A stretch of DNA of 64,000 nt. Source: Alphaproteobacteria bacterium. GTDB taxonomy: Bacteria > Pseudomonadota > Alphaproteobacteria > SP197. Within the stretch, counting starts at the first letter, position 1; every line of letters begins with the position of its first letter. This document shows, piece after piece, positions 14,784-53,751 of the stretch. The notes below the pieces were generated by a model that was not told the origin of the DNA, did no database searches, and worked only from the letters and a program-made list of their open reading frames with translations. The stretch spans positions 416,001 to 480,000 of the forward strand of contig OZ219747.1 in assembly GCA_964291265.2 (NCBI GenBank), read 5' to 3'. Position numbers and translations under genes: made by a program.

Positions 14784-15055
14784 CTTCTGGCCTCCGAACG
14801 ATGGGTTCCCCACATGGTTATCATAACCAACCCTCGGGCTGTATCAGGCGGGTCACCGCAGAGCGGAACAGCGGGCGGAGTCCTTTCCCTTCCGCGACGT
14901 CTCTCGTCGGTCTGAGGCATAGCCTCATTAGGAAAGGCATCGGACAACATGACACCCCTGCCGCAGCTCGCCGATCAGGGAGACCGCAACGCGCTTGACG
15001 GCGCGGGGCGGATTGTGTCATAATTGTAGCGTTCATCCCGAATGGAGACCGTGGC

Positions 15056-16027
15056 ATGGCCAGATTCAGAGGAACCGACGGCGACGACTGGCTCTACGGC
15101 AACTTGCTCTTCGGCGGCGCTGGCAACGACTGGCTCTTTGGCGGCGACGGCGACGACAAGCTTCGGGGCGGTGCTGGCAACGACATGATCTACGGCTTAA
15201 ACGGCAACGACAGGCTCCACGGCGGCGACGGCCACGACAGGCTCCACGGCGGCGACGGCGACGACGGGCTCCACGGCGGCGCTGGCCTCGACAGGCTCCA
15301 CGGCGACGCTGGCCACGACAGGCTCTACGGCCACGCTGGCGACGACTGGCTGGAAGGCGGAGCCGGCAACGACATGCTCTACGGCGGAGCCGGCAACGAC
15401 TGGCTCTTTGGCGGCGACGGCGACGACAAGCTTCGGGGCGGTGCTGGCAACGACAGGCTCGACGGCTTAAACGGCAACGACAGGCTCTCTGGCGGCGCTG
15501 GCAACGACTGCCTCTCTGGTGGCGCTGGCAACGACATACTCTACGGCGGAGCCGACAACGACTGCCTCTTTGGCGGCAACGGCGACGACAGGCTCTACGG
15601 CGGCGCTGGCGACGACAGCCTCTACGGCGACGGCGGCAACGACTGGCTCTCTGGCCGCGACGGTGGCGACACGCTCCGGGGCGACGCTGGCGACGACACG
15701 CTCCGGGGTGGCACTGGCGACGACACGCTCTATGGCGACGCTGGCGACGACACGCTCTACGGCGGGAAGGGCGACGACACGCTCCGGGGCGGCGCGGGCA
15801 ACGACCGCTTTTTCTTCGATGCCGAAAGCGACCATGACACCATTGCCGACTTCGGGAACGGCAGCGATACCATCGTGTTCAAACAGAAGTTGGCCTACGC
15901 CGACATCATCATCAAGGACCGCGACGCCGGGACCGTGATTACCGGGCCTAATGATGACTGGAGCATCACGCTTGAAGGCGTGACAGCGGCCGAGCTTACC
16001 GAAAGCGACTTTGAGTTTCTGGGATAG
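15056..16027 (+). CDS. RTX (hemolysin-type) calcium-binding repeat protein
   Basis: About 26 GGxGxDxLx nonapeptides, then D.I.DF..G.D.I and a type I secretion-like tail ending DFEFLG. Confidence 0.92.
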   Translation: MARFRGTDGDDWLYGNLLFGGAGNDWLFGGDGDDKLRGGAGNDMIYGLNGNDRLHGGDGHDRLHGGDGDDGLHGGAGLDRLHGDAGHDRLYGHAGDDWLEGGAGNDMLYGGAGNDWLFGGDGDDKLRGGAGNDRLDGLNGNDRLSGGAGNDCLSGGAGNDILYGGADNDCLFGGNGDDRLYGGAGDDSLYGDGGNDWLSGRDGGDTLRGDAGDDTLRGGTGDDTLYGDAGDDTLYGGKGDDTLRGGAGNDRFFFDAESDHDTIADFGNGSDTIVFKQKLAYADIIIKDRDAGTVITGPNDDWSITLEGVTAAELTESDFEFLG

Positions 16028-23282: not shown

Positions 23283-23294
23283 GCAGGGCAGGGT

Positions 23295-25742: not shown

Positions 25743-26480
25743 AGGGTGCACCATCCGAATCATCTTGTCCAGCACGATTTATGACCCAAGAGTAGGCCTT
25801 GCCAGCGACCCTCCAGCAGGAATCACCGCCATCCTCGAGACCGACGTCAGACTGTCGGCGCCCGACATCCGGCTCCCTTCCTGCGGCAGCCCGCGCAACG
25901 CCGGTCCGTGACGCCTCGAACCCTTCACGGATGGCTTTGTCTTCCCCGCAACGGGGAACGGATCACGCTCGCCGATGGGAATCCTGCGGCATGGACGCCT
26001 CTGCAGTTGACGTTCCTTGCCAGGGAGAACGACTGGAAGGCGATGCGCCGGGTATCGAGCTTGCCCGCGATGTCCCTTCGCAGCTGCTCTCGGGCCCTTA
26101 CACAGACGCCGGGACCGGGAGGCAGGGATATCGGCGATCACATCCGATCGGCTCCCATCTCCGTGCATCATCCGCCGGGCGCCTGCTCGATGGGACGTGA
26201 CGGCGATCCGGCAGCGGTCGTCGACCGGATCCTGGAAGTCCATGGAGCCACGGTCCTGAGGGTCATCGATGCCGCGTCATGCCGCGCCTCGCGAGCGTCG
26301 GCGTCAACGCCGCTCCCATCGCCGTGGCGGAGCGTGCAGCCGGCCTCATTCCGGACAATCCGCCGCTTCCTCAGGTGGCGGAGATCATTGCGGATGGCGG
26401 AGGGCATCCTGTAGGCTCAGGCTCCCTGATCCGGCCCCCTGCCCTCCGGGGAACGGATTGACCTGACGAGGGAGATCCCC

Positions 26481-35005: not shown

Positions 35006-36672
35006 GGGTGTGAGTCTAGTATGGCAGTTCTGTTATGGTCTTAAGTTATGGACTTAGTTCCATTGTTTCATCTCATGCGGCCAGCGCCGGGGTGTGATGT
35101 GGGCTGATGTTGTCGTTGGCTGGTGCGTTGTCGCCCTCGATCATGGCGGTCCACGCGCTTTCGAAGCGGCCTGATTTGAGCAGGGCGCGGAAGGTGAGAA
35201 CGGCTTGTCCGCCGACGATGCGCCAGCGCATGCCGGAGCGCTTCATGCGCTGTGTGACGAGGGTCTTGTTGGCTGCCTCGACAAGTCCCGAGCCGATGGC
35301 GATCCCCTGTTGCTTCAGCGCGTGGTAGCGCATGCGGTGGCGATGCTTGCGGAAGAAGGCCAGTTCCCTGTCGATGTCGGCTCGGCCCGCCGGCTTGGCG
35401 GTGTCGCGAAGGTGGCGCAGCGCCCGGATCACCCTGTCGATGCCGCGGGGGTCGTGACGCAGGATCTCGCGGTACTTCTCGAACCAGTGGGGCGCCGCTG
35501 CATGGTCGGCCACCACGCGCAGATGCTCGCAGGCATGCCAGAAGTCGATCACCTCGGTTTCGGGTTCAAGACCAGAGAGGAAGGTCCAGTTGTCGGCGGC
35601 GGCGTCGGCGATGGCGCTGATCCTGATCTCGGGACGCTCGCGCCTGATATGCGCGACCTCGCTTGCCAGCTGCACCTTCAGCGTGCACTTGCCGCGCTCG
35701 GGCATGCGGCCGAGATAGACGGTCTTCAGGCGCTCACCGTCGGCATCGTGGAAGGAGACTGTGCCACAGGCCGCCTCGCGCCAGCAGGCCTCGCTACGGC
35801 CGTCCTCGCCGGCCCGCAGCGCCACCATGACGCCGTCGAGCGAGACCGAGGCGGTGACCGCGTCCTGCGGGATGTCCTCGGCTTCCCGGATGCCATCCAG
35901 GGCCTGCGGACCGAGACGTTCCCAACGCTCCTGCATGGTCAGGCTCAAGCGCTGCAAGGTGCTCACAGACGGCGTCATGGCGCCGAGCTTGCCGAAGAAC
36001 GCCTCCGCTTCCCGCGCCGTGCAGTGGACCATCATCATCAGCCCAAGCTGAGCCGCCGGCCGTGTCAGGTCGTCGTCGACGAGGCCCAGGCTTTCGTCCA
36101 CCGGCATCAGCGACCGGCAGTGCCCGCCGGTGCGATAGCGCGCACGCCGAAAGGTCACCGGGCCGAGCGAGGTCATGATCGTCTTCGGCGTCGGCGCCAC
36201 ACGGAACCAGTTCTGCCCGTCCCGTTCGATCCGGGGCGCACCGTCGTCCCGGGCCTCGGCACAGGCACCCAGGATCTCGCAACCAAGCGCGTGCACGCTC
36301 TCAAGCACCCGCCGCTCCGCTTCCTCGAAGGCCTCGGCAGAGCGCTCTGAACCAAGCTGTCGATGACACACCGCGGTCACTTGCGTGACCGCTTCGACAA
36401 CCCGAGGCGGCAAGCCGAGAAGATCGATGGACGCGGAAGGCCGAAGCTGTGACACTGACATGGGAGCGCTCCTGATGTTGTGGTTTCAAGCCAGCATCAT
36501 ATCGCATCTTGCGGTGCGGAGCGTTCCCGCATCCACCGCCAAGCCCTGCTGTCGTGACAAAATCCGGTCCTGAAACGGGCAATTGTCACGAAACCCCGTT
36601 TTCGCCGTTCCATCGCGAACGCACAACCGTGATAAATCAATGACTTGGCTTCGCCATACGAGAACTACACCC
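35006..36672 (-). mobile_element. ISKra4/ISLre2-like IS, copy A (1667 bp)
   Basis: IRs GGGTGTGAGTCTAGTATGGC / GGGTGTAGTTCTCGTATGGC; 7-bp TSD CCTGCGT. Confidence 0.9.
35073..36461 (-). CDS. ISKra4/ISLre2-like (Mutator-type DDE) transposase
   Basis: SLDGVM, IADAA, DFWHACEHL, IGSG.VEAANK...RMKRSGMRW. Confidence 0.88.
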   Translation of the reverse strand: MSVSQLRPSASIDLLGLPPRVVEAVTQVTAVCHRQLGSERSAEAFEEAERRVLESVHALGCEILGACAEARDDGAPRIERDGQNWFRVAPTPKTIMTSLGPVTFRRARYRTGGHCRSLMPVDESLGLVDDDLTRPAAQLGLMMMVHCTAREAEAFFGKLGAMTPSVSTLQRLSLTMQERWERLGPQALDGIREAEDIPQDAVTASVSLDGVMVALRAGEDGRSEACWREAACGTVSFHDADGERLKTVYLGRMPERGKCTLKVQLASEVAHIRRERPEIRISAIADAAADNWTFLSGLEPETEVIDFWHACEHLRVVADHAAAPHWFEKYREILRHDPRGIDRVIRALRHLRDTAKPAGRADIDRELAFFRKHRHRMRYHALKQQGIAIGSGLVEAANKTLVTQRMKRSGMRWRIVGGQAVLTFRALLKSGRFESAWTAMIEGDNAPANDNISPHHTPALAA

Positions 36673-38531: not shown

Positions 38532-40198
38532 GGGTGTGAGTCTAGTATGGCAGTTATGTTATGGTCTTAAGTTATGGACTTAGTTCCATTGTTTTATCTC
38601 ATGCGGCCAGCGCCTGGGTGTGATGTGGGCTGATGTTGTCGTTGGCTGGTGCGTTGTCGCCCTCGATCATGGCGGTCCACGCGCTTTCGAAGCGGCCTGA
38701 TTTGAGCAGGGCGCGGAAGGTGAGAACGGCTTGTCCGCCGACGATGCGCCAGCGCATGCCGGAGCGCTTCATGCGCTGTGTGACGAGGGTCTTGTTGGCT
38801 GCCTCGACAAGTCCCGAGCCGATGGCGATCCCCTGTTGCTTCAGTGCGTGGTAGCGCATGCGGTGGCGATGCTTGCGGAAGAAGGCCAGTTCCCTGTCGA
38901 TGTCGGCTCGGCCCGCCGGCTTGGCGGTGTCGCGAAGGTGGCGCAGCGCCCGGATCACCCTGTCGATGCCGCGGGGGTCGTGACGCAGGATCTCGCGGTA
39001 CTTCTCGAACCAGTGGGGCGCCGCTGCATGGTCGGCCACCACGCGCAGATGCTCGCAGGCATGCCAGAAGTCGATCACCTCGGTTTCGGGTTCAAGACCA
39101 GAGAGGAAGGTCCAGTTGTCGGCGGCGGCGTCGGCGATGGCGCTGATCCTGATCTCGGGACGCTTGCGCCTGATATGCGCGACCTCGCTTGCCAGCTGCG
39201 CCTTCAGCGTGCACTTGCCGCGCTCGGGCATACGGCCGAGATAGACGGTCTTCAGGCGCTCACCGTCGGCATCGTGGAAGGAGACTGTGCCACAGGCCGC
39301 CTCGCGCCAGCAGGCCTCGCTACGGCCGTCCTCGCCGGCCCGCAGCGCCACCATGACGCCGTCGAGCGAGACCGAGGCGGTGACCGCGTCCTGCGGAATG
39401 TCCTCGGCTTCCCGGATGCCATCCAGGGCCTGCGGGCCGAGACGTTCCCAACGCTCCTGCATGGTCAGGCTCAAGCGCTGCAAGGTGCTCACAGACGGCG
39501 TCATGGCGCCGAGCTTGCCGAAGAACGCCTCCGCTTCCCGCGCCGTGCAGTGGACCATCATCATCAGCCCAAGCTGAGCCGCCGGCCGTGTCAGGTAGTC
39601 GTCGACGAGGCCCAGGCTTTCGTCCACCGGCATCAGCGACCGGCAGTGCCCGCCGGTGCGATAGCGCGCACGCCGAAAGGTCACCGGGCCGAGCGAGGTC
39701 ATGATCGTCTTCGGCGTCGGCGCCACACGGAACCAGTTCTGCCCGTCCCGTTCGATCCGCGGCGCACCGTCGTCCCGGGCCTCGGCACAGGCACCCAGGA
39801 TCTCGCAGCCAAGCGCGTGCACGCTCTCAAGCACCCGCCGCTCCGCTTCCTCGAAGGCCTCGGCAGAGCACTCTGAACCGAGCTGTCGATGACACACCGC
39901 GGTCACTTGCGTGACCGCCTCGACAACCCGAGGCGGCAAGCCGGAAAGATCGATGGACGCGGAAGGCCGAAGCTGTGACACTGACATGGGAGCGCTCCTG
40001 ATGTTGTGGTTTCAAGCTAGCATCATATCGCATCTTGCGGTGCGGAGCGTTCCCGCATCCACCGCCAAGCCCTGCTGTCGTGACAAAATCCGGTCCTGAA
40101 ACGGGCAATTGTCACGAAACCCCGTTTTCGCCGTTCCATCGCGAACGCACAACCGTGATAAATCAATGACTTGGCTTCGCCATACGAGAACTACACCC
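38532..40198 (-). mobile_element. ISKra4/ISLre2-like IS, copy B (1667 bp)
   Basis: About 99% identical to copy A (offset 3526); 8-bp TSD CTCGCAGG (38524-38531, 40199-40206). Confidence 0.92.
38599..39987 (-). CDS. ISKra4/ISLre2-like transposase
   Basis: 462 aa, near-identical to 35073-36461. Confidence 0.88.
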   Translation of the reverse strand: MSVSQLRPSASIDLSGLPPRVVEAVTQVTAVCHRQLGSECSAEAFEEAERRVLESVHALGCEILGACAEARDDGAPRIERDGQNWFRVAPTPKTIMTSLGPVTFRRARYRTGGHCRSLMPVDESLGLVDDYLTRPAAQLGLMMMVHCTAREAEAFFGKLGAMTPSVSTLQRLSLTMQERWERLGPQALDGIREAEDIPQDAVTASVSLDGVMVALRAGEDGRSEACWREAACGTVSFHDADGERLKTVYLGRMPERGKCTLKAQLASEVAHIRRKRPEIRISAIADAAADNWTFLSGLEPETEVIDFWHACEHLRVVADHAAAPHWFEKYREILRHDPRGIDRVIRALRHLRDTAKPAGRADIDRELAFFRKHRHRMRYHALKQQGIAIGSGLVEAANKTLVTQRMKRSGMRWRIVGGQAVLTFRALLKSGRFESAWTAMIEGDNAPANDNISPHHTQALAA

Positions 40199-40794: not shown

Positions 40795-41014
40795 CTAGTG
40801 CTCGGGGGCCGGGATGGGGAGTCCGCTTGATGACGGCCGGGACACCGTCACCAAACAGTCATGAACGTCGGCCTGCCTGCTCACCCCGCGCCATGAAGCA
40901 TGAGCCCGTCGTGGCCGTTGGACGAGTGCGTTGTTCCAGCGTGTTGGTACACGATAATGCGATGGTCCTGGAGGGGCCCGTCTCCATGAGGACAGGATCA
41001 GCGCAAACAGGTCA

Positions 41015-41240
41015 AGGTCGCACGTTTCCTTACCCGGGTTCCATGCTGTCCTGCGCCCGTGTCCGGACTTTCCTTGCGAAGGCAGAGTGCCGCCGCCTGG
41101 AGGGATGCAGACAGGGCGGCGGTCGCCTCCACGGCGTGCGGTATCCGCGCAAGCCGCACGCGCCCGGCCTTCGCGACGACGTCCGCCGCTTCACTGCGCC
41201 TGTGGCAAGCGCCTCCGCAGACCGGTGCGGATTCAGCCGG
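41015..41240 (+). pseudogene. Decayed homolog of the Zn-finger gene at 49196-49810
   Basis: FPYPGSMLSCARV...RLEGC..GGRLH..RYPRKPHA..LR.D.RRF aligns with the intact gene. Confidence 0.8.
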
Positions 41241-42030: not shown

Positions 42031-44886
42031 CGCACGATCCGCACTAGACGACGGCACGGCTGCTGCCGATCCTCGGAGACGGACGCATGCCAACCGAAAA
42101 CATCATGACGGCGAGAATCCCCTCCGGACTCGGCGCACCCAAGGACATGATCGTGATCGGTGTCGAGTTCGCTGAACGACCAGATATCATCCTCTACGTC
42201 CCTTCTGTCGAGTTGGCTGACGGCCTCGCTGCGTGCATGTCCGGCCGCACGGCGGCGGGACCAGCCCTTGATACTCCATCGTCGGTCCCAAGTGTTGTCA
42301 GACCGCGCCGAAGCCTGCAACCGACAACGCACCATGCACGGCACGGACGACGGCATGCTTGCGAGCCGGTTCCCCATGACGTCGGCTTCCGGTTCTCGAA
42401 AGCCGCAGCAATCATGGCTCAGCCCTTCATCGATCTCACGCTCCCGGAGGCGGCAGGGCTCTTCTTTTGTCCGGTTTCGTCCGATGAGGGGGCGTTGCAG
42501 GCAGATCTGGAGGTCCATTCGGGACCGGATTTCGTTGTCGATATGCCGGTTTCGACCTCGAGAAAGTGCCACCAACTTCAGACGTCCTGACCTCGGCTAT
42601 GAATTTGTCCAATCAGTTTGATGCTTCTGGGCCGAGTTTGGGTGGGTTGTCTGGCATGTCGTAGATCATGCGCAGGTCGGTTCCTGGGAAGGTCGTGCGC
42701 GTCTGGTTGAGTTCGTCGAGCAGTCCGGCGATATCGGCGTCGCGTGCGTTGCTGGCGGTGCCGAGGAATCGCACCCGCAGGACGCGGTTTTCCTGATCGG
42801 GGATGATGTCGGCGTCCGACTGGAACAGTTCGGCGAGGGGGCGTCGCGGACGCTGTTTTGCGCCCTGGGCCTGGGCGACGGCGGCCATCATCCGGGTTTC
42901 GGCGCGGTAGGCGATCATGCGAACGATGTCGAGCAGCAGCCTCTCGCTGGAGGGCAGGGCGTCGAGCCTGTCGTTCTCGTCGAGCTCGGCCACGGTGACA
43001 TGTTTCGGGATTTCTGCACGCCGGACCTTGAGCGCCTCGTGCTCGGCGTCGAGCGTCACGATCTTGTCCTGCAGCGTCGCGGCGGCCGTGATGGCGGTGT
43101 CGGACGGGGCGCCCTTGAGCAGGTCGGCGACGCGGTTGCGCAGTGTGCCGAGCTTCTGGCGCACCTGGCGGATGCGGCGGTCGCAGCGGCGCCAGTGCGG
43201 ATGGACGACGCGCGCTTCGGGGTCCTGCTCGACAAGGCCGTGCACGGCCAGCGCGTCGAGGCCGAACTCCTGGCGCATGTACTTGAAGAAGTTCTCCTGG
43301 GACCAGCGCGAGAACAGCGCGCCGGCGACCCGCTCCATGGGCGTGTGCATGTCCGTGGTGACAAGCGGCACCTGCCGGCCGCTGTCCAGAAGACGCCGGA
43401 TCTGGCGCACCTGCGGTCCGCCGGACAGCGTGATCCGTCTCTGTGCGAGCCGCACCTCGGCGGTGCGGACGCCACCTGGTGAGTGGAGCGGCGCCCGGAC
43501 CGTGCGGAACTCTCCCTGTGGCCAGGGATCGCTCCGGAACCCCTTGTGCCAGGTGATCACCGCCACCCCGCGTCGGGCGAGGCGGGCGAACAGCGCCGGG
43601 CTCCAGCCCTCGCGGTCGAACACCAGCGTCAGCCCCGGCGCAACCGCCTCTCCCCTGGCGAGGTCCGGCGCCTCCGGCCCCGGCAGGCCGAGCCGCTCCA
43701 GCGCGGGCAGGATGTCGTGCTCCAGCGCGTGCGTCATGGTCGGGTCGAGGTCCTTGTGCAGGCACAGGAGCGGCCGGCCGCCGAGCGCGTTGACCCAATA
43801 GCCTGTCGAGGCCGGCAGACAGAGCTTCTGACGTGACACGAAGTGCTTCGGCAGGCGACCCTTGCGGCCCGAATATACCTTCACGTGCCCGTCCACCGAC
43901 AGTGTCGCGCAGACATCCGGCGCGCCCGCGATCCAGTCCTTCGCCAGCGCGTCCTGCCAGTCCCGGACCCGCTGCGGGTCGCTCGCGAGCGCCCTGATCT
44001 TGCGCCGCAGCGTCTTGACCTCCGGGCAGCGGTCGAGCCCCAGGACCGCGCCCCGTTCTCCGGGCGCCTCGTGGCGCAGCGCCTCGGGGTTGCGGATCCG
44101 GGCCATGAACAGGAAGGCGAGCATGAGAAGCACGCTCGTCAGCCCATAGTACCCTTTCGGCAGCGACAGGAACCTGTCCGCGTGCTCCAGGAGACCCTCC
44201 TTCAGCAGCGCCGGCAGCGCCGCCAGGACGCCGCCGCCGGCGACCGCCGAGAGTGGCTCGTCGAAGCGCGGCGGCGCTTCGTTCATGGCTCCCGTCGAAG
44301 CCGCGACGCGCCCGGCGCTGTCGCGCGCGCCGCGCCCCATCGGCGCGACCCTGTCGCGACGGTCCCGTTCGCCGCGGCCGAGAAGATCGTCCGGGCATCG
44401 CGTGGCCTCGTCGACTTGCGCCGCCTGCGGCCGCTCTCCGCCGCCGATGAAGCCGTTGCTGAGGTTGTAGTACGCCGTCGATCTCGCGATCCCCAGTTCC
44501 CGGGCCAGTGCCGCGGCGTTCATGCCCTCGGCCAGGAGACGGTTCGCCGCGGCTGCCGTCTCGCCTGTGATCACGCTGAGACCACGGCCCTTGCGTGGCT
44601 CGTAGAAGCTCGCTTCGCCCTCGTCCCGGAGCTTCCTCACCGCCCGCTGCACGGTCGCGCGGCTCACGTCGAAGGCCGCCTGCAGGTCTCCTTGAGGAAC
44701 GCCGTGCCTGGCGAACCTCGCGATCCGCAGCAGCATGGCCGGCCGGTCGCCCTCGTCGTGGCAGTCGAAGGGCTCCATGTTCGAGAAGTAGACGGTGAGC
44801 GCCTTCAGGCAGATTGATGATGCGTTGATCGGGCAATTTAGTGGACATGAGCTTTCGCGCTGCGCTTGGTTTGCGGTTCTTGAAGG

Positions 44887-45750
44887 CTACTTGGAAGGGA
44901 AGGCTGGTGTTCGTGCCTTGAGGACGTCGTTCCAGTCTTTGTGTCCGTCTGGGGGTCTCATGCGGAGAGCTCTTGGGTCTTGGCTGACGAGGCGCTCGGC
45001 GGCCTGTTCTCCGACGGGATCGGCGTCGAAGGCGACGAGGATGCGCTTTGGCGTCCAGGCTTCGGCCCATGTTGGGAGACGGTAAGCGATGCCGGCGGTT
45101 GACAGGATCACGGTAGCGGATTGCCGACATTCCTTGAGGCACCATGCGGAGAGGGCGTCGATGGCGCTTTCGGTGATGATGATGGTGCGTGGCATGGAGC
45201 GGTCCACGGGGATCCAGAAGCTGCCGGCGGCCTTGCGTGATCCACGCGCCATGGCTCTGTACTGCTTTCCGTCTGCGTTGGGGACGGTACCGACGATCTC
45301 GGCGCCGGAGACGTCTCTTCGTGCGTTGGTGCATGTGAAGACGGCGTTTCTGCGTTCGTCGGCGGCGACGAGGCCGTGCTGTCGGCAAGCGTCCAGGCAA
45401 CGGTCTGGCAGGCGGCGGTCATGGGCGAGGTAGTGGCGTACGGCGTGCCAGGTTTCCTCGCAGTGCGTTGGTGTTCTCGGCCCCTTGCCGCCGGAGCGTG
45501 CGGTGAGGAGTGCGACGGCGTCGTTGAAGCTGCAGCGGTGTGCATGCATGACGAGATCGATGGCGCCGCCACCGCCGGACTGGGTGATGTGGTCGAACCA
45601 GCGTTGTCGGTTGACGCTGATGACGGATCCGTGGCGCTTGAAGCGTCGCGGGTCGCGCGGGTCTCTTCGGTAGCCGAGCCGCAGGGCGAGTGGTTCGAGG
45701 GGCTGGTTGCGGATGTCATCGAGATGCTGATTGTCCCAGGACCGGATCAT
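44887..45750 (-). CDS. TOPRIM-domain primase-like protein (DUF3991/TOPRIM-like)
   Basis: N-terminal WFDH....GGGAIDLVMH....FNDAV..L; TOPRIM motifs ITESAIDALS, AFDAD..G, KDWND. Confidence 0.82.
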   Translation of the reverse strand: MIRSWDNQHLDDIRNQPLEPLALRLGYRRDPRDPRRFKRHGSVISVNRQRWFDHITQSGGGGAIDLVMHAHRCSFNDAVALLTARSGGKGPRTPTHCEETWHAVRHYLAHDRRLPDRCLDACRQHGLVAADERRNAVFTCTNARRDVSGAEIVGTVPNADGKQYRAMARGSRKAAGSFWIPVDRSMPRTIIITESAIDALSAWCLKECRQSATVILSTAGIAYRLPTWAEAWTPKRILVAFDADPVGEQAAERLVSQDPRALRMRPPDGHKDWNDVLKARTPAFPSK

Positions 45751-45785
45751 GGTCTGTCGAGCCTCCTGCGTGGTGGACGGGGGGT

Positions 45786-45850
45786 GGTTCCCGTTGGCGG
45801 TTCCCACCTGAACTCCCAGGGTGAACGGGAACCGGGAACCGGGAACCGCC
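45786..45850. repeat. Cluster of GGGAACC heptamers in inverted arrangement (candidate origin)
   Basis: GGTTCCC at 45786 and 45799; GGGAACC x3 in tandem at 45827-45847; 10-bp IR GGCGGTTCCC / GGGAACCGCC. Confidence 0.75.
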
Positions 45851-45884
45851 TGGCGTCGGGGCGTTTTGCGCCTGGTTGTTGCGG

Positions 45885-46832
45885 TCAGGCTTTGGCGACG
45901 CGATAGGCACCGGGACCGTCCTGTGCGACACGTCCTTCCTGGACGAGCTTGGCCAGAAGCGTGGCGACGGTCGTGTTCCGTGTTGGGACGCGGTCCCGGA
46001 CCTGGCGCAGCGAGAGCGGGGCATCGGCGTCGGCGAGGACCTGGACGATGCGCTGTTCGGGGGTTGGCGGCTGCGGCCTGGCGCCGTCGGGTTCCTGTTG
46101 CCGCAGCTGCAGGGCGGCTCCGTTGCCGCTGTCGGTGAGTTCGATGTCGAGATCGGCGAGTCCGGGTGCGGCGCGGTGTTCGACGGTCATGAGGATGGTT
46201 TCGTGGCGGCGCCGCAGGTAGAGGTTGCTGTCGCCCCATGCGTGCAGCTCGCTGCTTCCGCGCAAGGCCTGTCCGGGCCGGCTGGCGGCGCTCTTGCGTG
46301 CGTGGTGGACGAGCAGCACGGCGGCGCCGGAGTGTCGCTGCACGTCGCGCAGGAAGCCGAGGATCGGCGCGATCTCGGCGACGGCGTTTTCGTCGACGCC
46401 GTGCAGGCGGACGAGGGGGTCGAGGATGAGCAGGCGGGAGCCGTGACGCTCGACGGTCTCGAGCAGGCTCTGGCGGTCGGTTGGGTGGTCGAGGCGCAGT
46501 GCGGGGACGTCGATGACGGCGATGTCGAGGGTGTCGAAGTCGGCGCCGGCTGCGGCGGCGATGCCCTGGAGGCGGCGTCGCACGATGTGGCCGGCGTCCT
46601 CGGCGGCGAACATGAGCACCGGTCCGGGGTGCATGGCCGGGAAGCGGCGCAGACAGGGGACGCCGGCGGCGACGGCGACGGCGAGATCGAGGGCGAGGAA
46701 GGACTTTCCGCACTTGGGTTCGCCGCCGATGATGCCGACGGCCTCGCGGCCCCACAGGCTGTCGACGAGCCACTGCCCCTCGGTTGGCCGGTCCTCGAGT
46801 TCGGCCGGGCTGCGGGTTGGCAGGCCGATCAT
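45885..46832 (-). CDS. AAA_25 / RepA-like (RecA-fold) helicase with C-terminal winged HTH
   Basis: WLVDSLW, Walker A GEPKCGKS, AED, LLILDP, LVHHARK, LRGSS; ATGA overlap with the upstream gene. Confidence 0.87.
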   Translation of the reverse strand: MIGLPTRSPAELEDRPTEGQWLVDSLWGREAVGIIGGEPKCGKSFLALDLAVAVAAGVPCLRRFPAMHPGPVLMFAAEDAGHIVRRRLQGIAAAAGADFDTLDIAVIDVPALRLDHPTDRQSLLETVERHGSRLLILDPLVRLHGVDENAVAEIAPILGFLRDVQRHSGAAVLLVHHARKSAASRPGQALRGSSELHAWGDSNLYLRRRHETILMTVEHRAAPGLADLDIELTDSGNGAALQLRQQEPDGARPQPPTPEQRIVQVLADADAPLSLRQVRDRVPTRNTTVATLLAKLVQEGRVAQDGPGAYRVAKA

Positions 46833-47659
46833 CGTGTGCGCCTCGGCGGGATGGGTTCGCCCCAGGTTTCGAGGAAGAGCTTTTCGTCGAGCACCTCGCG
46901 GTCGGTGTCGAGGGCGACAGCGAGGAGGTTGTCGGCGAGGATGGTCAGGGAGCGCGGATTGCCGTCTGCATGGACGACGAGGGTCTCCTTGAGGCCGGGG
47001 GTCATGAGGCCTGGATTGCCGGCGGCGTCGAGCAGGTGGTCGAGCAGGCGGAGCAGTTCGTCGGGTTCGCAGCGCGTCATGACGAGGCGTTGACGGACCC
47101 GCGAGGCGACGGCTTGCAGGTCGGGGCTGTGCAGCTTGGCGAGCAGGCGGCTGTCGCCGGCCAGGACGACGCTGAGGATGGCGCGCGAGTCGAACTCCGT
47201 GGAGGCGAGCAGGCGCAGTTCGGTGAGCACGGCCTGCGGCATCTCCTGGGCCTCGTCGACGAGCAGGACCGGGCGCATGCGGGTGTCCTCGAGATGGGTG
47301 AGCCAGCACTCGCGCAGGGCCTTGAAGCCGGCCCAGAGGTTCCGGCGCAGTGTCGTGATGCCGAAGAGGTCGGTCATCTCGCGGTAGAAGTCTGCGGTGC
47401 TCGACGAGGGATGGGCGAGCACGGCGACGTCGAGGCCCTCCGCGGTCTCGAGACGCTCGTCGAGCAGGCGCAGGGCGACGCTCTTGCCGGTGCCATGCTC
47501 GCCGGCCACCACGGCGAAGCCGCCCTGGCGCACGAGCTGACGCTCGATCCTGCGGCAGAAGCTGTCGATCGCGGGCGTTGCGAGAAGGCCCTCGACCGGC
47601 AGGTCGGCGGCGAAGGGGTTCCACTTGAGGCCGTAATGGGTGAGGTGTTGGCGGTTCAT
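46829..47659 (-). CDS. ExeA/AAA_22 family ATPase (transposition helper, TnsC/MuB-like)
   Basis: YGLKWNPF, GEHGTGKS, LLVDEAQ, VLAG, SR, GNPR; ATGA overlap with the transposase stop. Confidence 0.9.
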   Translation of the reverse strand: MNRQHLTHYGLKWNPFAADLPVEGLLATPAIDSFCRRIERQLVRQGGFAVVAGEHGTGKSVALRLLDERLETAEGLDVAVLAHPSSSTADFYREMTDLFGITTLRRNLWAGFKALRECWLTHLEDTRMRPVLLVDEAQEMPQAVLTELRLLASTEFDSRAILSVVLAGDSRLLAKLHSPDLQAVASRVRQRLVMTRCEPDELLRLLDHLLDAAGNPGLMTPGLKETLVVHADGNPRSLTILADNLLAVALDTDREVLDEKLFLETWGEPIPPRRTR

Positions 47660-49173
47660 GACATGTCTCCCTGATCGTTGTTGTCCTTGCCTTCGTCGTT
47701 CGGGCCGGCATCCTTGCCGAAGGGCAACCATGCCGGGGGCAGGCCGGTGGCGTCCTGCTCGTCGCGCAGGCGCTTGAGCAGCGGCGCCGGCCCGGTCTGT
47801 GGCTTCACCTCGTCGTCTTCTCTCCGGCGCCCGGTCCGGCGGCGGAGCCCCTCGGCGTTGCGAGACTTGTCCACCGGACGCAGGGTCGAGATGCGGTCCC
47901 CGGTGCGGCCGTCGACCATGTCGATGCCGGAGAGGTCCCAGCGGGCGACGCGCAGGTCGATCTCGCGCAGGTGGCGCCACGGCGCCGGCAGTTGATAGCG
48001 GACACTCGCCACCGTCACCGTGGCGTCGGAGCGTCGCACCTTGCGACGCACCTTGATGCGGAAGGCGGCCCGGAGTTCGCTGCTGTCCGGGCATGTCCGC
48101 GAGGCGTCCTCGCTGTCGATCACGCGCCTGAGCGGCGTGACCCCCGTCTCGCGGTGTACGCGGCGGTGATACTCGCGCTCGAACCAGATGACGGTGGCGT
48201 CGTTCAGGTCCTGCAGGGTCAGGGTCTCGACGTTCTCGAGCATCGCCATCAGGCGGCCCTCGACCTGGGCGAACAGCACCTCCTGCTTGCCGTTCTGGTA
48301 CGGGCTGCGGACAAGCGTGTGGTGGTGCAGCACGCCGAGGGCGTGCAGTCCCTCCTGCACCTCCCCGGCCGTCATCGCCGATCCGTTGTCGGTCAGAAGG
48401 GACCGCGGCAGCCCTCGCTTCATGAAGGCCTGGCTGATGCCGTGAACGAAGATCTCCGTGGTCTCCCCGAGATACCACTGCATGTGGCAGACGAGACGCG
48501 AGTGGTCGTCGATGAAGCTGAGCAGGATCGGCGTCCTCCACTCCCCGGACGGCGTCAGCACGCGACAGGTCCGCGCATGGTGGAAGTCGGCGTGCCACAG
48601 GGCATGGCTGCGCGAGACCTCGTAGCTCAGCACCTCGCGCCCCTCGACCGCAGGCCGCTCCGCTTCACCACCGAACTTCCGCTGCCGCCGCCGCCGCTCC
48701 AGGCCCGCCGAACGCATGACCCGGGTCAGCGTCGCATAGGACGGCATCGGCCCGAGCGAAGGGTCGGCCTCGACCAGCGCGCAAAGGTTGTCGTGGTGGA
48801 GCTGAACCGACCACGTGGGGTGCGCCCTGTACTGGTCGCGCAAGGCCGCCATCAGCAGGGGCGAGACGCTCCGCGCACGACCGGCGTCGCAGCGCACCCG
48901 ACGGCGCAGCGCCCGCACCGGATCCCGGTCGGCCGACCGCGCCTTGTAGTACCAGCGCTCGATCGTCGACACCGAGAAGCGGATCGTGCCGCCCCTGACG
49001 GGATGCTCCCAGTCCCGCCGCGACAGCCGTTGAAGCTCGGCCCGCAAACCACCCTTCGGCGGCGGCGACGCCAGCAGCGGGCCAACCACCGCAAAGCGCA
49101 GCCGCGTCCAGGCGTCCCCGGCGTCCGCTTCGTCCTTCGTCACCACGACGGCCTTCCTCCCTCGTCGTCCCAT
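47656..49173 (-). CDS. DDE (rve) transposase with N-terminal HTH and Mu-like C-terminal domain
   Basis: STIERWY, LWHADFH, FIDDHSR, LLTDNGS, PYQNGKQE, YH..VH..TG.TP, RKVR.SD.TV. Confidence 0.92.
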   Translation of the reverse strand: MGRRGRKAVVVTKDEADAGDAWTRLRFAVVGPLLASPPPKGGLRAELQRLSRRDWEHPVRGGTIRFSVSTIERWYYKARSADRDPVRALRRRVRCDAGRARSVSPLLMAALRDQYRAHPTWSVQLHHDNLCALVEADPSLGPMPSYATLTRVMRSAGLERRRRQRKFGGEAERPAVEGREVLSYEVSRSHALWHADFHHARTCRVLTPSGEWRTPILLSFIDDHSRLVCHMQWYLGETTEIFVHGISQAFMKRGLPRSLLTDNGSAMTAGEVQEGLHALGVLHHHTLVRSPYQNGKQEVLFAQVEGRLMAMLENVETLTLQDLNDATVIWFEREYHRRVHRETGVTPLRRVIDSEDASRTCPDSSELRAAFRIKVRRKVRRSDATVTVASVRYQLPAPWRHLREIDLRVARWDLSGIDMVDGRTGDRISTLRPVDKSRNAEGLRRRTGRRREDDEVKPQTGPAPLLKRLRDEQDATGLPPAWLPFGKDAGPNDEGKDNNDQGDMS

Positions 49174-49195
49174 GGGAGGAAGGCCCTATACGGTC

Positions 49196-49810
49196 CTATG
49201 TCATCGCACTACAGGCACTCTCTGCGGGCGGCGACAGACCATCGACGATCCTGCAGAAGCCGGTCCACGGCATGAGCCAGACCAGGCTCCGCAGAAGGCG
49301 CGATCGAAACGATCCGCCGCGCATCAAGCGCACCAGGGCCACAAGCGGAGGCTCGTCCGCCTCCACCGCCAGATCGCCACGTTTCCAGCGCCACGCCGCC
49401 GTCGCCGGGAACCTCTCCCGCCACCATCGACGCCACCGGCCAAGCGTCCTCTCCGGGATGCCAGACATGCGGCTCGCCTTCGCCAGGGGAACACTGCCGC
49501 ACAGAACCAGGAGGCTCGCAGCCAGGTATACCGGCGCCGCACGGAACCTCCGGCCGAAGAAGCGCACCGAGGGCGGAGTCGTCCGGCTCCTGCACTCAGC
49601 ACAGCAGAAGCTGAAACGGCGGTTGTCGCCGCGAAGAGCAGGCGCAAGCGCGTGCGGCTTGCGCGGATACCGCGCGCTGTGAAGACGACCGCCGCAATGC
49701 GGGCATCCCTCCAGGCGGCAGCGCTCCGCCTCGGCCGCATCAATCCTCTCAAGGAGAGGCCAGACATGAGCGCAGGAAAGTATGGGACCCGGGAAGGAAA
49801 CGTGCGACAT
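49196..49810 (-). CDS. Zn-finger/HTH accessory protein, first gene of the transposon
   Basis: CPHCGG and CCAECR cysteine pairs, R.TPPSVRF, HTH-like GIPERTLGRWRRWW. Confidence 0.78.
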   Translation of the reverse strand: MSHVSFPGPILSCAHVWPLLERIDAAEAERCRLEGCPHCGGRLHSARYPRKPHALAPALRGDNRRFSFCCAECRSRTTPPSVRFFGRRFRAAPVYLAASLLVLCGSVPLAKASRMSGIPERTLGRWRRWWRERFPATAAWRWKRGDLAVEADEPPLVALVRLMRGGSFRSRLLRSLVWLMPWTGFCRIVDGLSPPAESACSAMT

Positions 49811-50287
49811 TGACTGGCCTCCGGTGATCTCACCGTCACGGAGACAAGCCCCTCGGCCGACTTCTTGCAAGTCGGTCGAGGGGCAATCACCCCAGACCAG
49901 CAGACAATTCAAGCAAAACCGACGGAATCCACGTCAAAAATCGCGCAAACGCTTAGACGGTCTGTCCGTCGAGGTCGGCAAGGGAGAAGCACGAGGTTCC
50001 AATCTGGACGGCTTCGGGAGGGTGCATTGCGAGCGTGTTCATGGCCTGGACTGCTCCAATATAGGCATCATGTCATATTGGATCACCCCACGGCTATGGT
50101 GTCAAGCAAAAAACTGGGAAACCCGTTCATTGTGTTGGAAAAAAAGAAGGTCCGGACGGATCAAGTCAACTCACGAGGTCAGGACGTCTGAACTTCAAGA
50201 ACGGTCACTCTGAAGCGGTTGTCCACCGCCGATCACGACAACAGAACGGTCCTGCCGGAGGCGGTGACGCCCTTGCCATTCGAGATG

Positions 50288-50332: not shown

Positions 50333-50839
50333 ATGACGAAGCCTTCAGTCCGACCCCGACCCTGCATCGATCCGGATTGCCGCGGGCAGCACTCGCAAGG
50401 CGAACGGGTCGCCCTGGCGGAGTCGATTTGCGCAGAGCGCGGCGTGCAGATGACAGAGTGGCGCAGGCGTATCCTGGAGTTGCTCTGGGTCCGCGGTGAG
50501 CCGACAAGCGCCTACCAGCTGATCGAGGCCGTCAGACTCAAGGATTCGCGTCCGATCGGACCGCCGACAGTGTACCGGGCGCTGCACTTCCTGATGGAAC
50601 AGGGTCTCGTTTCCAGGATCGAGAGCCTCAATGCCTACGTCCCATGCATCCATCCCGAGCGTGATCACGATTGCCTCTTCTTCATTTGCAGGGCCTGTGG
50701 AACGTCGGTCGAGCTCGAGGATCCGCGAATCGCGGGACTGCTCGCCGAGGATGCCGCCGTCCTCGGGTTCGTCGCCAAGCGTCGCACGGTTGAAGTCGAG
50801 GGCACGTGCGCCGAGTGCGCAGGAACCGATGCGACATAG
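50333..50839 (+). CDS. zur: Zinc uptake regulator (Fur family)
   Basis: SAY.L, PPTVYRAL.FL..GLV.RIESLNAY..C, C..C pairs; heads a Zn ABC operon. Confidence 0.88.
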   Translation: MTKPSVRPRPCIDPDCRGQHSQGERVALAESICAERGVQMTEWRRRILELLWVRGEPTSAYQLIEAVRLKDSRPIGPPTVYRALHFLMEQGLVSRIESLNAYVPCIHPERDHDCLFFICRACGTSVELEDPRIAGLLAEDAAVLGFVAKRRTVEVEGTCAECAGTDAT

Positions 50840-50861
50840 GCAGGAGGGAAGTACGGCACCC

Positions 50862-51074
50862 ATGGTGGAGAAGGCCGTGCCAGGATGGACCGTCGCGGCG
50901 ACCGGAGGTGACCGCCGTCACTCGGCAGGAAGCACTGGCAAGAAGACCCGGTACACCCGATCACTTCGGCTGCTGCCGTTGGGCGCCGGCTCTCGGCTCA
51001 TCGGCGCAGGCCTGATCGTTGCTGTGCTCTGGGGCGCCTTCTTCTGGGCAACGTCCACGCCAGGTGGACCGTGA
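50862..51074 (+). CDS. Small membrane protein preceding the metal ABC ATPase
   Basis: Single TM segment RL..AGLIVAVLWGAFFWA; stop overlaps the next start (GTGA). Confidence 0.55.
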   Translation: MVEKAVPGWTVAATGGDRRHSAGSTGKKTRYTRSLRLLPLGAGSRLIGAGLIVAVLWGAFFWATSTPGGP

Positions 51075-51814
51075 CCTACGCCCTTCAGTTTCAGGATCTG
51101 ACCCTCGGCTACGACCGGCATCCGGCCGTGCATCGCCTGCATGGCGAGATCGCGGAGGGAAGCCTGACTGCTGTCGTCGGACCGAACGGGGCCGGAAAGT
51201 CCACGATGTTGAAGGGAGTCATCGGTGCACTCCGCCCACTGGAGGGACGGATTACCCTTGGTGGGCTCACGCGGAACGAGATCGCCTACCTGCCGCAGCA
51301 GTCGGACGTCGACCGGTCATTCCCCATCACAGTCGCCGACCTCGTGAGCATGGGGCTCTGGCGGGAGATCGGCGGCTTCGCCGGCTTGCGGGCCCGCCAT
51401 CGCACACGCATCGCCGATGCGATTTCCGCGGTCGGACTCGACGGGTTCCAGAAACGTCCGATCGGGTCGCTGTCGGTCGGACAGGTACAGCGCACGCTCT
51501 TTGCGCGGCTTCTCCTCCAGGACGCACGGCTCGTCCTGCTGGACGAGCCCTTCAACGCTGTTGACGCAAGAACGATGGCGGACCTGATCGGTGTGGTGCG
51601 GCGCTGGCACGGCGAGGGCCGCACGGTGCTTGTCGTCCTGCACGACTTCGACACGGTGCGGGCCCACTTCCCTCGCACGCTGATGCTCGCCCGGGAGCTC
51701 GTGGCCCATGGACCCACGGCGCAGGTTCTGACGGCCGAGAACCATTTCCGGGCGCGCCAGATGTGCGAAGCCTGCGTTGGCTTCCCGCATACCTGCGGGC
51801 GGAGCGCGGCGTGA
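51071..51814 (+). CDS. Zn/Mn ABC transporter ATPase (AztA/ZnuC-like)
   Basis: GPNGAGKST, AYLPQ, LSVGQ.QR, LLDEPF, VLHD. Confidence 0.92.
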   Translation: MTYALQFQDLTLGYDRHPAVHRLHGEIAEGSLTAVVGPNGAGKSTMLKGVIGALRPLEGRITLGGLTRNEIAYLPQQSDVDRSFPITVADLVSMGLWREIGGFAGLRARHRTRIADAISAVGLDGFQKRPIGSLSVGQVQRTLFARLLLQDARLVLLDEPFNAVDARTMADLIGVVRRWHGEGRTVLVVLHDFDTVRAHFPRTLMLARELVAHGPTAQVLTAENHFRARQMCEACVGFPHTCGRSAA

Positions 51815-52680
51815 TGTGGGAGGCACTTGTCCAGCCCTTTGCCGATTTTGGCTTCATGCGGCGCGCACTCGTCGGCTGCGTGGCGATATCCCTGGGCGCA
51901 ACGCCCGTCGGGGTGTTCCTGATGCTGCGCCGCATGAGTCTGACTGGAGACGCGATGGCCCATGCGATCTTGCCGGGAGCGGCCGTCGGCTTTCTTGTCG
52001 CAGGCCTCTCGCTTGGAGCGATGACCGTGGGCGGGCTGATCGCGGGCATGACCGTGGCGCTTCTTGCGGGGTTCGTGACCCGAGCCACCGCTCTGCAAGA
52101 GGACGCGAGCCTCGCGGCCTTCTACCTGATCTCGCTGGCGACCGGCGTGCTGATCGTGTCCACTCGAGGCAGCAACGTCGACCTGATGCATGTGCTGTTC
52201 GGTACCGTGTTGGCACTCGACAACGCTGCCCTGATCCTGCTCGGCACCATCGCGAGCGTTACGTTGTTCACGCTTGCGGTGCTGTTCCGGCCGCTCGTGC
52301 TCGAATGCGCGGACCCGCAGTTCCTGCGTTCGGTCAGCAAGCTCAGCGCCGTTGCGCACTTTGCTCTTCTCGTCCTCGTCGTGCTCAACCTCGTGGGCGG
52401 ATTCCAGGCGCTCGGCACGCTGATGGCGGTCGGCATCATGATCCTTCCCGCCGCCGCGGCGCGGTTCTGGACGGTGAGCGTCGGTGCATTGATCGCCGTC
52501 GCGACAGCCATCGGGATGCTCTCAAGCGTGAGCGGACTTCTTCTCTCCTATCATTTCAGCCTGCCCTCCGGTCCGGCGATCATCCTTGTCGCCGGTCTCG
52601 CCTATGGGTTCTCCCTGGTCCTTGGCCCGGTCAGCGGCCTTGCCGCGCGAGCCTTCTGGGGCCGCTACCTCGAAGCCTGA
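51814..52680 (+). CDS. Zn/Mn ABC transporter permease (AztB/ZnuB-like)
   Basis: FMRRAL, RRMSL.GDAMAHAILPG, LFG, P.GPAI. Confidence 0.92.
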   Translation: MWEALVQPFADFGFMRRALVGCVAISLGATPVGVFLMLRRMSLTGDAMAHAILPGAAVGFLVAGLSLGAMTVGGLIAGMTVALLAGFVTRATALQEDASLAAFYLISLATGVLIVSTRGSNVDLMHVLFGTVLALDNAALILLGTIASVTLFTLAVLFRPLVLECADPQFLRSVSKLSAVAHFALLVLVVLNLVGGFQALGTLMAVGIMILPAAAARFWTVSVGALIAVATAIGMLSSVSGLLLSYHFSLPSGPAIILVAGLAYGFSLVLGPVSGLAARAFWGRYLEA

Positions 52681-52692
52681 AGGATGCTTGCC

Positions 52693-53751
52693 ATGCCCAC
52701 TCGCAGAAACTTCTTGAGCTCTGTTGCCGCTGTTCCCCTTCTGTCGCTCGCCTCTCCGGTCGCCGCGCAGTCCAGCAATCCGATCAAGGTGGTCGCCACC
52801 TTCTCGATCCTCGGCGACATGACAAGGCGAATCGGAGGCGAGCATGTCGATGTCACGACCCTCGTCGGTCCTGACGGGGATACGCATGTTTACCGGCCAA
52901 CACCCGCAGATGCCCGGGCCGTCAGCGAAGCGGAAATCGTTGTCGTCAACGGACTGGAGTTCGAAGGTTGGCTGGACCGTCTGATCGACGCTTCGGAATT
53001 CAGCGGTGTCCGGGTGGCGGCGACCGACGGCATCGAGCCGATCGCCTACGAGCGCGACGACCACGATGATCATGACGATCACGATGATCACGACGACCAT
53101 GACGATCACGACGACCATGACGACCATGACGATCACGAAGACCACGATGATCACGACGACCATGATGATCACGACGATCACGACGACCATGACGACCACG
53201 ATGATCATGACCATCACCATGGCGCCTTCGACCCCCACGCCTGGCAGAGCCTCCGCAATGCCATCGTGTACGTGAACAACATTGCTGCGGCGCTGTCCGA
53301 GGCCGACGCGGACAATGCCGGCACGTTCTACCGGAATCGCGAGGCTTATGTGGACGAACTCGAGGCCCTCGATTCGGAATTCCGCGACACCTTTGCCCAG
53401 CTTCCCGAGGGCAGCCGAACCGTCGTCACCTCACACGACGCGTTCCAGTACTTCGGTCGCGACTACGGGCTGATCTTCCTGTCGCCGCAAGGGCTCAGCA
53501 CCGAATCGGAGGCATCCGCACAGGAAGTCGCTCGGCTCGTCAAGCAGATACGCGATCAGGACATTCAGGCCGTCTTCGTCGAGAACATCGCGGACCACCG
53601 CCTCCTGGAACGCATTGCCGACGAGACAGGAGCCGCCATCGGCGGCACGCTCTATCCAGGCGCGTTGTCCGACTCCGACGGTCCGGCACCGACCTATCTC
53701 GACATGATGCGGCACAACGCGACAACGATCATGCAGGCGCTGACCCCATAG
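52693..53751 (+). CDS. Zn ABC substrate-binding protein (AztC/ZnuA-like) with Tat signal and His/Asp loop
   Basis: TRRNFL, VVATFSILGD, D.H.Y.PTP, DPHAW, HDAF.Y. Confidence 0.93.
   Translation: MPTRRNFLSSVAAVPLLSLASPVAAQSSNPIKVVATFSILGDMTRRIGGEHVDVTTLVGPDGDTHVYRPTPADARAVSEAEIVVVNGLEFEGWLDRLIDASEFSGVRVAATDGIEPIAYERDDHDDHDDHDDHDDHDDHDDHDDHDDHEDHDDHDDHDDHDDHDDHDDHDDHDHHHGAFDPHAWQSLRNAIVYVNNIAAALSEADADNAGTFYRNREAYVDELEALDSEFRDTFAQLPEGSRTVVTSHDAFQYFGRDYGLIFLSPQGLSTESEASAQEVARLVKQIRDQDIQAVFVENIADHRLLERIADETGAAIGGTLYPGALSDSDGPAPTYLDMMRHNATTIMQALTP
53056..53220 (+). repeat. Coding 9-bp tandem repeat: 17 x (D/E)DH plus DHHH
   Basis: GAY GAY CAY units counted directly. Confidence 0.95.

Follow-up and report, generated by a model that had tools for sequence, protein, structure and literature searches.

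A Tn6049-type DDE transposon with a helicase, an inverted iteron site, and a primase in a swappable slot, and their possible role in starting replication for transposition

The transposon and its Tn6049-type core

The stretch of DNA analysed here (the window, 64,000 nucleotides; G000:C2:416001-480000, with G000 denoting the alphaproteobacterial genome that holds it) contains a 5,160-bp transposon of 68% GC, on the minus strand at 44796..49955, which carries a helicase gene, an inverted iteron site, and a primase gene behind its transposase and ATPase genes. It interrupts a host insertion sequence (IS; Transposase_29, ~2.45 kb; 42578..50191, minus strand), itself separate from the element, at about codon 27 of the IS transposase reading frame. 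The empty site is preserved in copy 1 of this IS (window 23294-25743), and thus both the 5,160-bp unit within the copy-2 transposase gene and the empty site that an earlier model reading of the sequence (the original prediction) had proposed are seen. GACGG target duplications lie on either side, at 44791..44795 and 49956..49960 (plus strand), and the ends read TGAGCG.../...CGCTTA: a short imperfect inverted repeat, with TGAGCG... behind the primase gene (44796..44807, plus strand; TGAG/TGAA...CTCA in relatives) and TAAGCG... ahead of the first open reading frame, ORF1 (49944..49955, minus strand; TGAG in relatives). Eight letters are common to the junction at the window copy, so that its register is ambiguous from this copy alone; the ends are exactly fixed because five further full copies in G000 each have a duplication of their own (GCACC, GATGG, CCGCG, ACGTC, and ACAGG), and these copies confirm the predicted GACGG duplication and TGAGCG/TAAGCG ends. 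Genome-wide BLAST thus gives six full copies, all six with identical ends and their own 5-bp duplication; four are intact (99.4-100%) and differ mutually by 15 to 30 bases, two are split by a 5.3-kb IS21-like element, and there are fragments in addition. A related element has left a degenerate remnant (~74%) of its ORF1 end on the opposite strand, at window 40971-41193.

The five co-oriented minus-strand ORFs code for 204, 505, 276, 315, and 287 amino acids (aa), with ATGA overlaps between the transposase and ATPase genes and between the ATPase and helicase genes; this arrangement, with ATGA coupling of the transposase, ATPase, and helicase genes, is as originally described. In gene order, they match the Pfam families HTH_23 (weakly, below the cut-off), rve, AAA_22, AAA_25 with a weak helix-turn-helix (HTH) match, and DUF3991 plus Toprim. 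ORF1 (49196..49810, minus strand; 204 aa) has a Zn-ribbon (C36/C39/C70/C73) and an HTH and is DUF6431-like, DUF6431 being annotated in 32-44% of the members of the clusters that it matches; it has a homologue in Tn6049. The transposase (47656..49173, minus strand; 505 aa) is of the rve DDE type, with the triad D196, D262, and E298 invariant in 32 sequences; its top PDB profile match is TnsB (E 8e-9), and its nearest solved relative is ShCAST TnsB. The nearest solved structures of the AAA+ helper ATPase (46829..47659, minus strand; 276 aa; AAA_22/ExeA-like) are ShTnsC and 8xvb, entitled 'ATP-dependent target DNA activator B', which we take to be MuB. With a TnsB-like transposase, an AAA+ regulator, two ends, and 5-bp duplications, the element is a real, active transposon of Mu/Tn7 architecture, as had been claimed for it.

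Membership in several established groups was considered and rejected. The element is not Tn7-like, as TnsA and TniQ/TnsD genes were not found in the five ORFs (no Pfam or NCBIfam match to TnsA or TniQ at E<=0.1). The top NCBIfam matches of the transposase and ATPase are IS481-type and ExeA-type models, both below cut-off; at 108.6 bits, where the cut-off is 224, and with five genes and not a single one, the element does not belong to IS481. Nor does it belong to IS21: there are no IstA/IstB homologues among its proteins, which have no NCBIfam match to IS21 models at E<=0.1 and by tblastn do not match the genome's own IS21-like IstA/IstB at E<=1e-4.

A tblastn search of plasmids with the transposase gave matches of 47-51% in Cupriavidus, Pseudomonas, and Paraburkholderia. 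At loci L001 and L002, genes homologous to those for ORF1, transposase, and ATPase stand in the same order, with no helicase or primase behind the ATPase; TGAGCG is also the end of L002, the Paraburkholderia relative, and the terminal repeats of L001 agree with those of Tn6049 as given in the available portion of PMC4739549. As far as the accessible passages of PMC2864759 and PMC4739549 go, Tn6049 is a 3.5-kb element with a 'gspA' ATPase (PMC2864759) and short imperfect terminal repeats (PMC4739549), present in 12 copies in CH34 (PMC2864759), and its reported direct repeats are 4 bp. Tn6049 of Cupriavidus metallidurans CH34 and Pseudomonas aeruginosa plasmid pHS87a has the gene order ORF1-transposase-ATPase of our element, with identities of 46% over 137 aa for ORF1, 47% for the transposase, and 53% for the ExeA/'gspA' ATPase; both are multicopy and have short imperfect terminal repeats, but Tn6049 (~3.5 kb) has a 71-aa ORF with an acidic tail where the element has the helicase, iteron site, and primase. 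The Cupriavidus match is not Tn6048, which is a different, 10.4-kb element. By their sequences, then, we assign the first three genes to a Tn6049-type core (TnsB/TnsC-type, without TnsA, TniQ, or resolvase), and, although the original prediction knew of no named IS family with this layout, these genes have a named counterpart in the little-studied Tn6049.

The element also appears to fit the TnsBC class, in which, in the accessible text of bioRxiv 10.1101/2024.11.13.623437, a TnsB-like transposase is followed by an AAA+ regulator without TnsA/TniQ. It shares two ends and a ~5-bp duplication with TnsBC elements, with phage Mu (MuA/MuB), and with type V-K CRISPR-associated transposons (TnsB/TnsC). 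It differs from TnsBC elements in having no resolvase among its five genes, an extra Zn-ribbon/HTH gene ahead, and its own helicase, iterons, and primase, and in that the duplications of its relatives vary, being 4 or 5 bp. The word 'primase' does not occur in the main text of that preprint. A literature search (with ISfinder, TnCentral, the original Tn6049 description, and most subscription journals outside it) found no transposon with such a helicase/primase layout. The core belongs to a known kind, and the replication-start slot behind it is not described in the literature searched.

Helicase, iteron site, and primase in the slot behind the ATPase gene

The helicase gene (45885..46832, minus strand) codes for a 315-aa RepA-like RecA-fold protein (AAA_25) with a C-terminal winged helix at about residues 258-312. 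RSF1010 RepA is its top match in sequence (E 2e-13, ~22% identity) and in fold, in agreement with the predicted RepA-like helicase; RAD51 paralogues, RadA, and KaiC match in fold as well. Residues K43 (Walker A), D138 (Walker B), H176/H177, R220, and R285 are invariant in 97/97 distinct helicases, and E78 in 96/96 sequences. The RepA-type helicase is what the element has in common with the IncQ plasmid RSF1010; a RepC-type initiator has no Pfam match in the element's ORFs, where the winged helix is fused to the helicase, and the element's primase is of the DnaG/TOPRIM (DnaG/T7) type, unlike RepB', which belongs to another class. A helicase relative was not found in viral contigs, and plasmid matches are only partial (30-34%). 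The module is patchy, since the helicase profile matched one of the 400 other genomes of a class-wide sample, in which at most five candidates were scored per genome. Prediction of an ATPase-helicase complex scored 0.00, which counts neither for nor against a partnership.

Behind the helicase gene lies an inverted iteron site (45786..45848, minus strand), with three GGTTCCC-type units, a 21-bp spacer, and two opposite units, which is a predicted helicase binding or loading site. It falls within the 44887-46832 stretch that had been proposed for a test of autonomous replication; the candidate origin itself had been named without coordinates. We searched for opposed TT(C/A/T)CC and GG(G/T/A)AA units behind the helicase genes of 96 relatives, less eight with short flanks, plus the query (89 sequences), and the pattern is present in 68, compared with a mean of 0.1 in shuffles and 0/96 in each of three in-gene controls; in its strict form, it occurs in G000 only in the six element copies. 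None of 11 helicase-less loci has it (5 of these have <600 bp of room), and it was not found in loci with only a primase behind a second type of transposon ATPase (clade B, below) or in the IS21-like element of G000. The central base switches together in both arms in 61/68 sites, and of the 315 helicase columns, 284 and 286 are its best predictors; both flank the invariant R285, at the start of the last helix of the winged helix, which is the predicted recognition helix. P286 accompanies GGTAA in 12/13 sites and occurs with none of the other 55. The arrangement can be compared with SaPI (Staphylococcus aureus pathogenicity island), whose Rep initiator-helicase, in the accessible part of PMC9371898, has a C-terminal winged helix and opposed iterons directly behind the gene, with an AT-rich centre. 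The Rep-ori systems of SaPIs and other phage-inducible chromosomal islands (PICI) and the element alike have a helicase with a C-terminal winged helix, then short opposed iterons, and a primase nearby, and where SaPI/PICI origins are defined by at least two iterons per side, the element has 3 + 2 units. They differ in that SaPI/PICI Reps are SF3/SF6 AAA+ helicases and the element's is RecA-fold and RepA-like, in the AT-rich centre, which the element's site lacks, and in the primase, which is upstream in SaPI/PICI and downstream in the element; SaPI/PICI also carry an integrase and phage-satellite genes, whereas the element has a DDE transposase and no satellite genes among its five ORFs. Nothing supports reading the site as a hairpin or terminator, as it folds no better than shuffles (z -1.2) and has no T run; Rfam gave one chance match (E 0.95).

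The fifth gene (44887..45750, minus strand) codes for a 287-aa DUF3991+TOPRIM protein. Its model matches DnaG and T7 primase structures, and the TOPRIM acidic residues E194, D198, D242, and D244 are invariant in 62 sequences; model and residues together identify it as a probable DnaG-type primase with intact catalytic residues, in keeping with the primase-like TOPRIM protein of the original prediction. On plasmids, it is related to domains of MobV relaxases (30-36% identity), and viral contigs gave three weak, TOPRIM-only matches. Ratios of nonsynonymous to synonymous substitution (dN/dS; 5 and 4 pairs, not independent) are 0.15-0.30 for the helicase, 0.33-0.37 for the primase, and 0.20-0.33 for the transposase, which suggests that helicase and primase are under purifying selection like the transposase. 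In sequencing run X2, a contig joins window 44952 to 45880 and leaves out both the primase gene and the site; this contig could represent a deleted version of the element or else a related one.

Among relatives, the contents of the slot vary. In the best 80 of 590 GTDB loci anchored on the transposase, a sample biased to close relatives, a helicase stands behind the ATPase in 70, none in nine, and one has no room; a full primase follows the helicase in 14. When multicopy elements are counted once, 25 have the helicase (7 of these with the primase) and nine do not. The stable forms, with ends of the TGAG...CTCA type, are a four-gene form of ~4.4 kb and a five-gene form of 5.0-5.2 kb; the former, with helicase and no primase, is present in six copies in genome G008 and at 15 loci in another. 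A primase without a helicase lies directly behind clade-B ATPases at L221-L224, L226, and L233, with 15 full matches in genome G024. The five-gene unit is real and multicopy but not fixed, as four-gene, primase-only (15 copies in G024), and Tn6049 forms with neither gene are multicopy too. Records of the family span Pseudomonadota, Acidobacteriota, Chloroflexota, and Actinomycetota.

Anchored instead on the helicase (best 80 of 321 metagenome matches, five without upstream room), a transposon ATPase lies directly upstream in all 75 loci with room: 57 belong to the element's clade, 10 to clade B, a second DDE/ExeA clade whose transposase is 29% identical to the element's, and eight are IS21 IstB. 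In a quick tree of the helicases, these partners are interleaved, with eight partner changes, at least three (clade B) plus two (IS21) of which are forced by well-supported branches. By this sequence comparison, the helicase appears to be a dedicated transposon accessory that has been re-captured repeatedly by three transposase families. Clade-B elements (L071:10185-13497, minus strand; G024, G026, and G028) carry helicase and site, helicase and primase, or primase alone. Like the element, the IS21 family has a transposase and an AAA+ helper, and in some of its members the slot holds this helicase and site or else a related primase; the transposase and ATPase of the element, however, are not IstA/IstB. 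The IS21-like element of G000 (5,326 bp, TGT...ACA ends; G000:C2:2284347-2289672 and ~30 further places), which interrupts two copies of the element studied here, has genes for a Zn-finger ORF, IstA, IstB, and a DUF3991/TOPRIM primase-like protein (33% over 179 aa), with no helicase and no iteron site; its duplications in 29 full copies are of 5 bp (21 copies), 6 bp (four), and 7 bp (one), with none in three.

In 10 of 11 helicase-less relatives, Tn6049 included, the slot is occupied by an ORF of 59-89 aa (L001:7309-7524, L002:7263-7478, L086, L089, L092, L093, L095, L096, L104, and L106). Nine of these 10 ORFs end in an acidic tail closed by Phe, an ending found in 14 of the 6,329 long segments of a six-frame translation of G000 (non-coding frames included) that served as control. 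We liken this ending to the tail of single-stranded DNA-binding protein (SSB), presumably a docking motif for restart and repair proteins.

A possible replication start for transposition

We estimate at roughly 0.55 the probability that helicase, site, and primase are a swappable replication-start module that serves transposition, by starting the replication that completes or supplies a jump, and is not a free replicon. The grounds for this are the position of the helicase behind a transposon ATPase (75/75), its repeated changes of partner, the conserved catalytic residues and dN/dS of helicase and primase, and the occurrence and covariation of the site, together with the SaPI-like layout, the SSB-tail-like slot peptides, and the need of phage Mu for PriA, whose primosome is required in both the replicative and the repair pathway (PMC3325207, in its accessible passages). 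Without TnsA, the transposase would nick the 3′ ends only and so give a branched strand-transfer intermediate; in Mu, such an intermediate needs the host PriA restart primosome for DnaB loading, and the element would face the same step. The winged helix would then read the iterons and the RepA-like ring would load itself inside the element, as SaPI Rep does, and unwind toward the ends, with the displaced strand primed by the element's primase, or by host DnaG where an element has none. Host polymerase would complete the copy, and the products would be simple insertions with their own target duplication. An acidic-tail peptide in the slot would engage host restart proteins, and the slot would be a booster and not a requirement: every filling suggests a role at the start of replication, and no single one is indispensable.

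Several observations weigh against this proposal. The module is dispensable: Tn6049, which lacks a helicase, reaches 12 copies, and an 8,080-bp form whose helicase gene is interrupted has still moved, being present in three identical copies (L079-L081) with their own duplications, although supply in trans is possible. The site pattern fails to match 21 of the 89 helicases, several of which have a similar site by eye, and the spacer (12/21 G+C, 57% GC) is not AT-rich as in SaPI origins. A FastTree phylogeny that leaves out the winged helix implies 10 changes for the GGTAA type, and after allowing for the tree, four well-supported independent pairs remain, all of which agree (p=0.125, non-significant); the helix and the site are adjacent, so recombination may carry both, and linkage could explain part of the covariation. 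Finally, relatives have matched duplications in 47/51 copies, 30 of 5 bp and most of the others of 4 bp; with the 6/6 matched duplications in G000, this is not the swapped-flank pattern expected of intramolecular cointegrates. The pathway is therefore uncertain and cointegrate formation is not established; the matched duplications and the absence of a resolvase among the five genes give no positive sign of cointegrates in these sequences.

Alternatively, though we consider this unlikely, the module might be a mini-replicon and multiply the element, excised as a circle or still integrated, independently of strand transfer, with the extra copies acting as donors. The site has three variants that go with the winged helix, much as would be expected of plasmid incompatibility types, and two elements with different variants (L057 and L071) are found in one genome; matched duplications of variable length would suit a circle or linear donor, and the module is also found on IS21 elements, which form circles. 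The rep-then-opposed-iteron layout is likewise that of the SaPI origin (PMC9371898, as far as accessible). However, primase-only and peptide-only slots cannot be replicons, and yet such elements are multicopy or intact; there is no copy-control or partition gene among the five ORFs; and no head-to-tail junction was found in G000 or in 218 loci, where 17 matches to a generic junction pattern are 16 instances of one in-gene word and one ordinary flank. No circle junction is listed in the Logan contigs of four runs, contigs that drop rare variants. In run X1, which may be the source sample, the element/flank depth of 314/50.7, or ~6, equals the chromosomal copy number, a weak point as depth is no true copy number; in runs X2 and X3, the element is at 7-23x flank depth, a figure not used since strains are mixed. 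The autonomous replication module of the original prediction is still a hypothesis, and of the three roles it offered, priming of the element's own transposition-linked replication fits best, circle amplification is the rival just discussed, and nothing points to a phage satellite.

Two further explanations fit less well. In the first, the site would serve as operator or enhancer-like assembly point, and the RecA-fold ATPase would regulate the operon or remodel the transposition complex, with no replication start involved. This would suit a site that is neither AT-rich nor better folded than shuffles (z -1.2), and a RecA-fold ATPase that is translationally coupled to transposition genes and whose fold is common to non-replicative ATPases (RAD51 paralogues, RadA, and KaiC match); we nonetheless think it improbable, as the replicative RepA is the top match in both sequence and structure, the site lies behind the gene and not at a promoter, and the other slot occupants are a primase and an SSB-tail-like peptide. 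It is more doubtful still that the block is a plasmid or satellite replicon captured as cargo and merely carried: the MobV relaxase relatives of the primase (30-36%) and the loss or breakage of the module in active elements would allow this, but close helicase relatives outside a transposon ATPase operon were not found (75/75 loci; none in viral contigs; plasmids 30-34% and partial), and cargo is hard to square with purifying selection and with the module's repeated capture, in three transposase families, at one and the same position behind the ATPase gene.

A replication start serving transposition would be of interest because the hand-over from transposition to replication is understood chiefly from phage Mu, where it depends on host PriA restart proteins. 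Four interchangeable slot fillings (helicase and site, helicase and primase, primase alone, and SSB-tail-like peptide) occur in otherwise matched transposons, and the hand-over is therefore directly testable by slot swapping. If the helicase-site pair is an origin, a replication start would be built into a compact DDE transposon, and this could account for the element's occurrence in four phyla; it could also suggest how TnsB/TnsC genome-editing tools might be steered toward cointegrates or simple inserts. We hold only tentatively, at less than even odds, a broader view in which a self-loading helicase origin is widespread in DDE transposons and is traded by three unrelated transposase families, its variants act like incompatibility groups, and it fires inside the element, on the integrated copy or on a circle, and so supplies donor copies with no need of the host restart primosome.

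Other features of the window

The interrupted host IS has TCAGACGTCC ends and 3-bp duplications. Four of six uninterrupted copies examined have the transposase in two overlapping frames near the 5′ end, and one uninterrupted copy has a single frame of 764 codons. Copy 1 is itself nested in a ~250-bp repeat that is uninterrupted in 10 copies elsewhere.

Window 15014-15934 holds a tandem array of >25 units, each of 27 bp, that code for Gly/Asp nonapeptide repeats, which we take to be of the RTX calcium-binding type. Genes for a regulator and an ABC transporter at window 50333-53751 are presumably, from their motifs, those of a Zur-like regulator and a ZnuC/B/A-like transporter; in the binding protein, a long loop of (His-Asp-Asp)n is encoded at 53021-53254. 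Two 462-aa ORFs at window 35073-36461 and 38599-39987 lie 3,526 bp apart and are 99% identical in DNA over the 300 bases compared, an identity that marks them as an apparently recent duplication.

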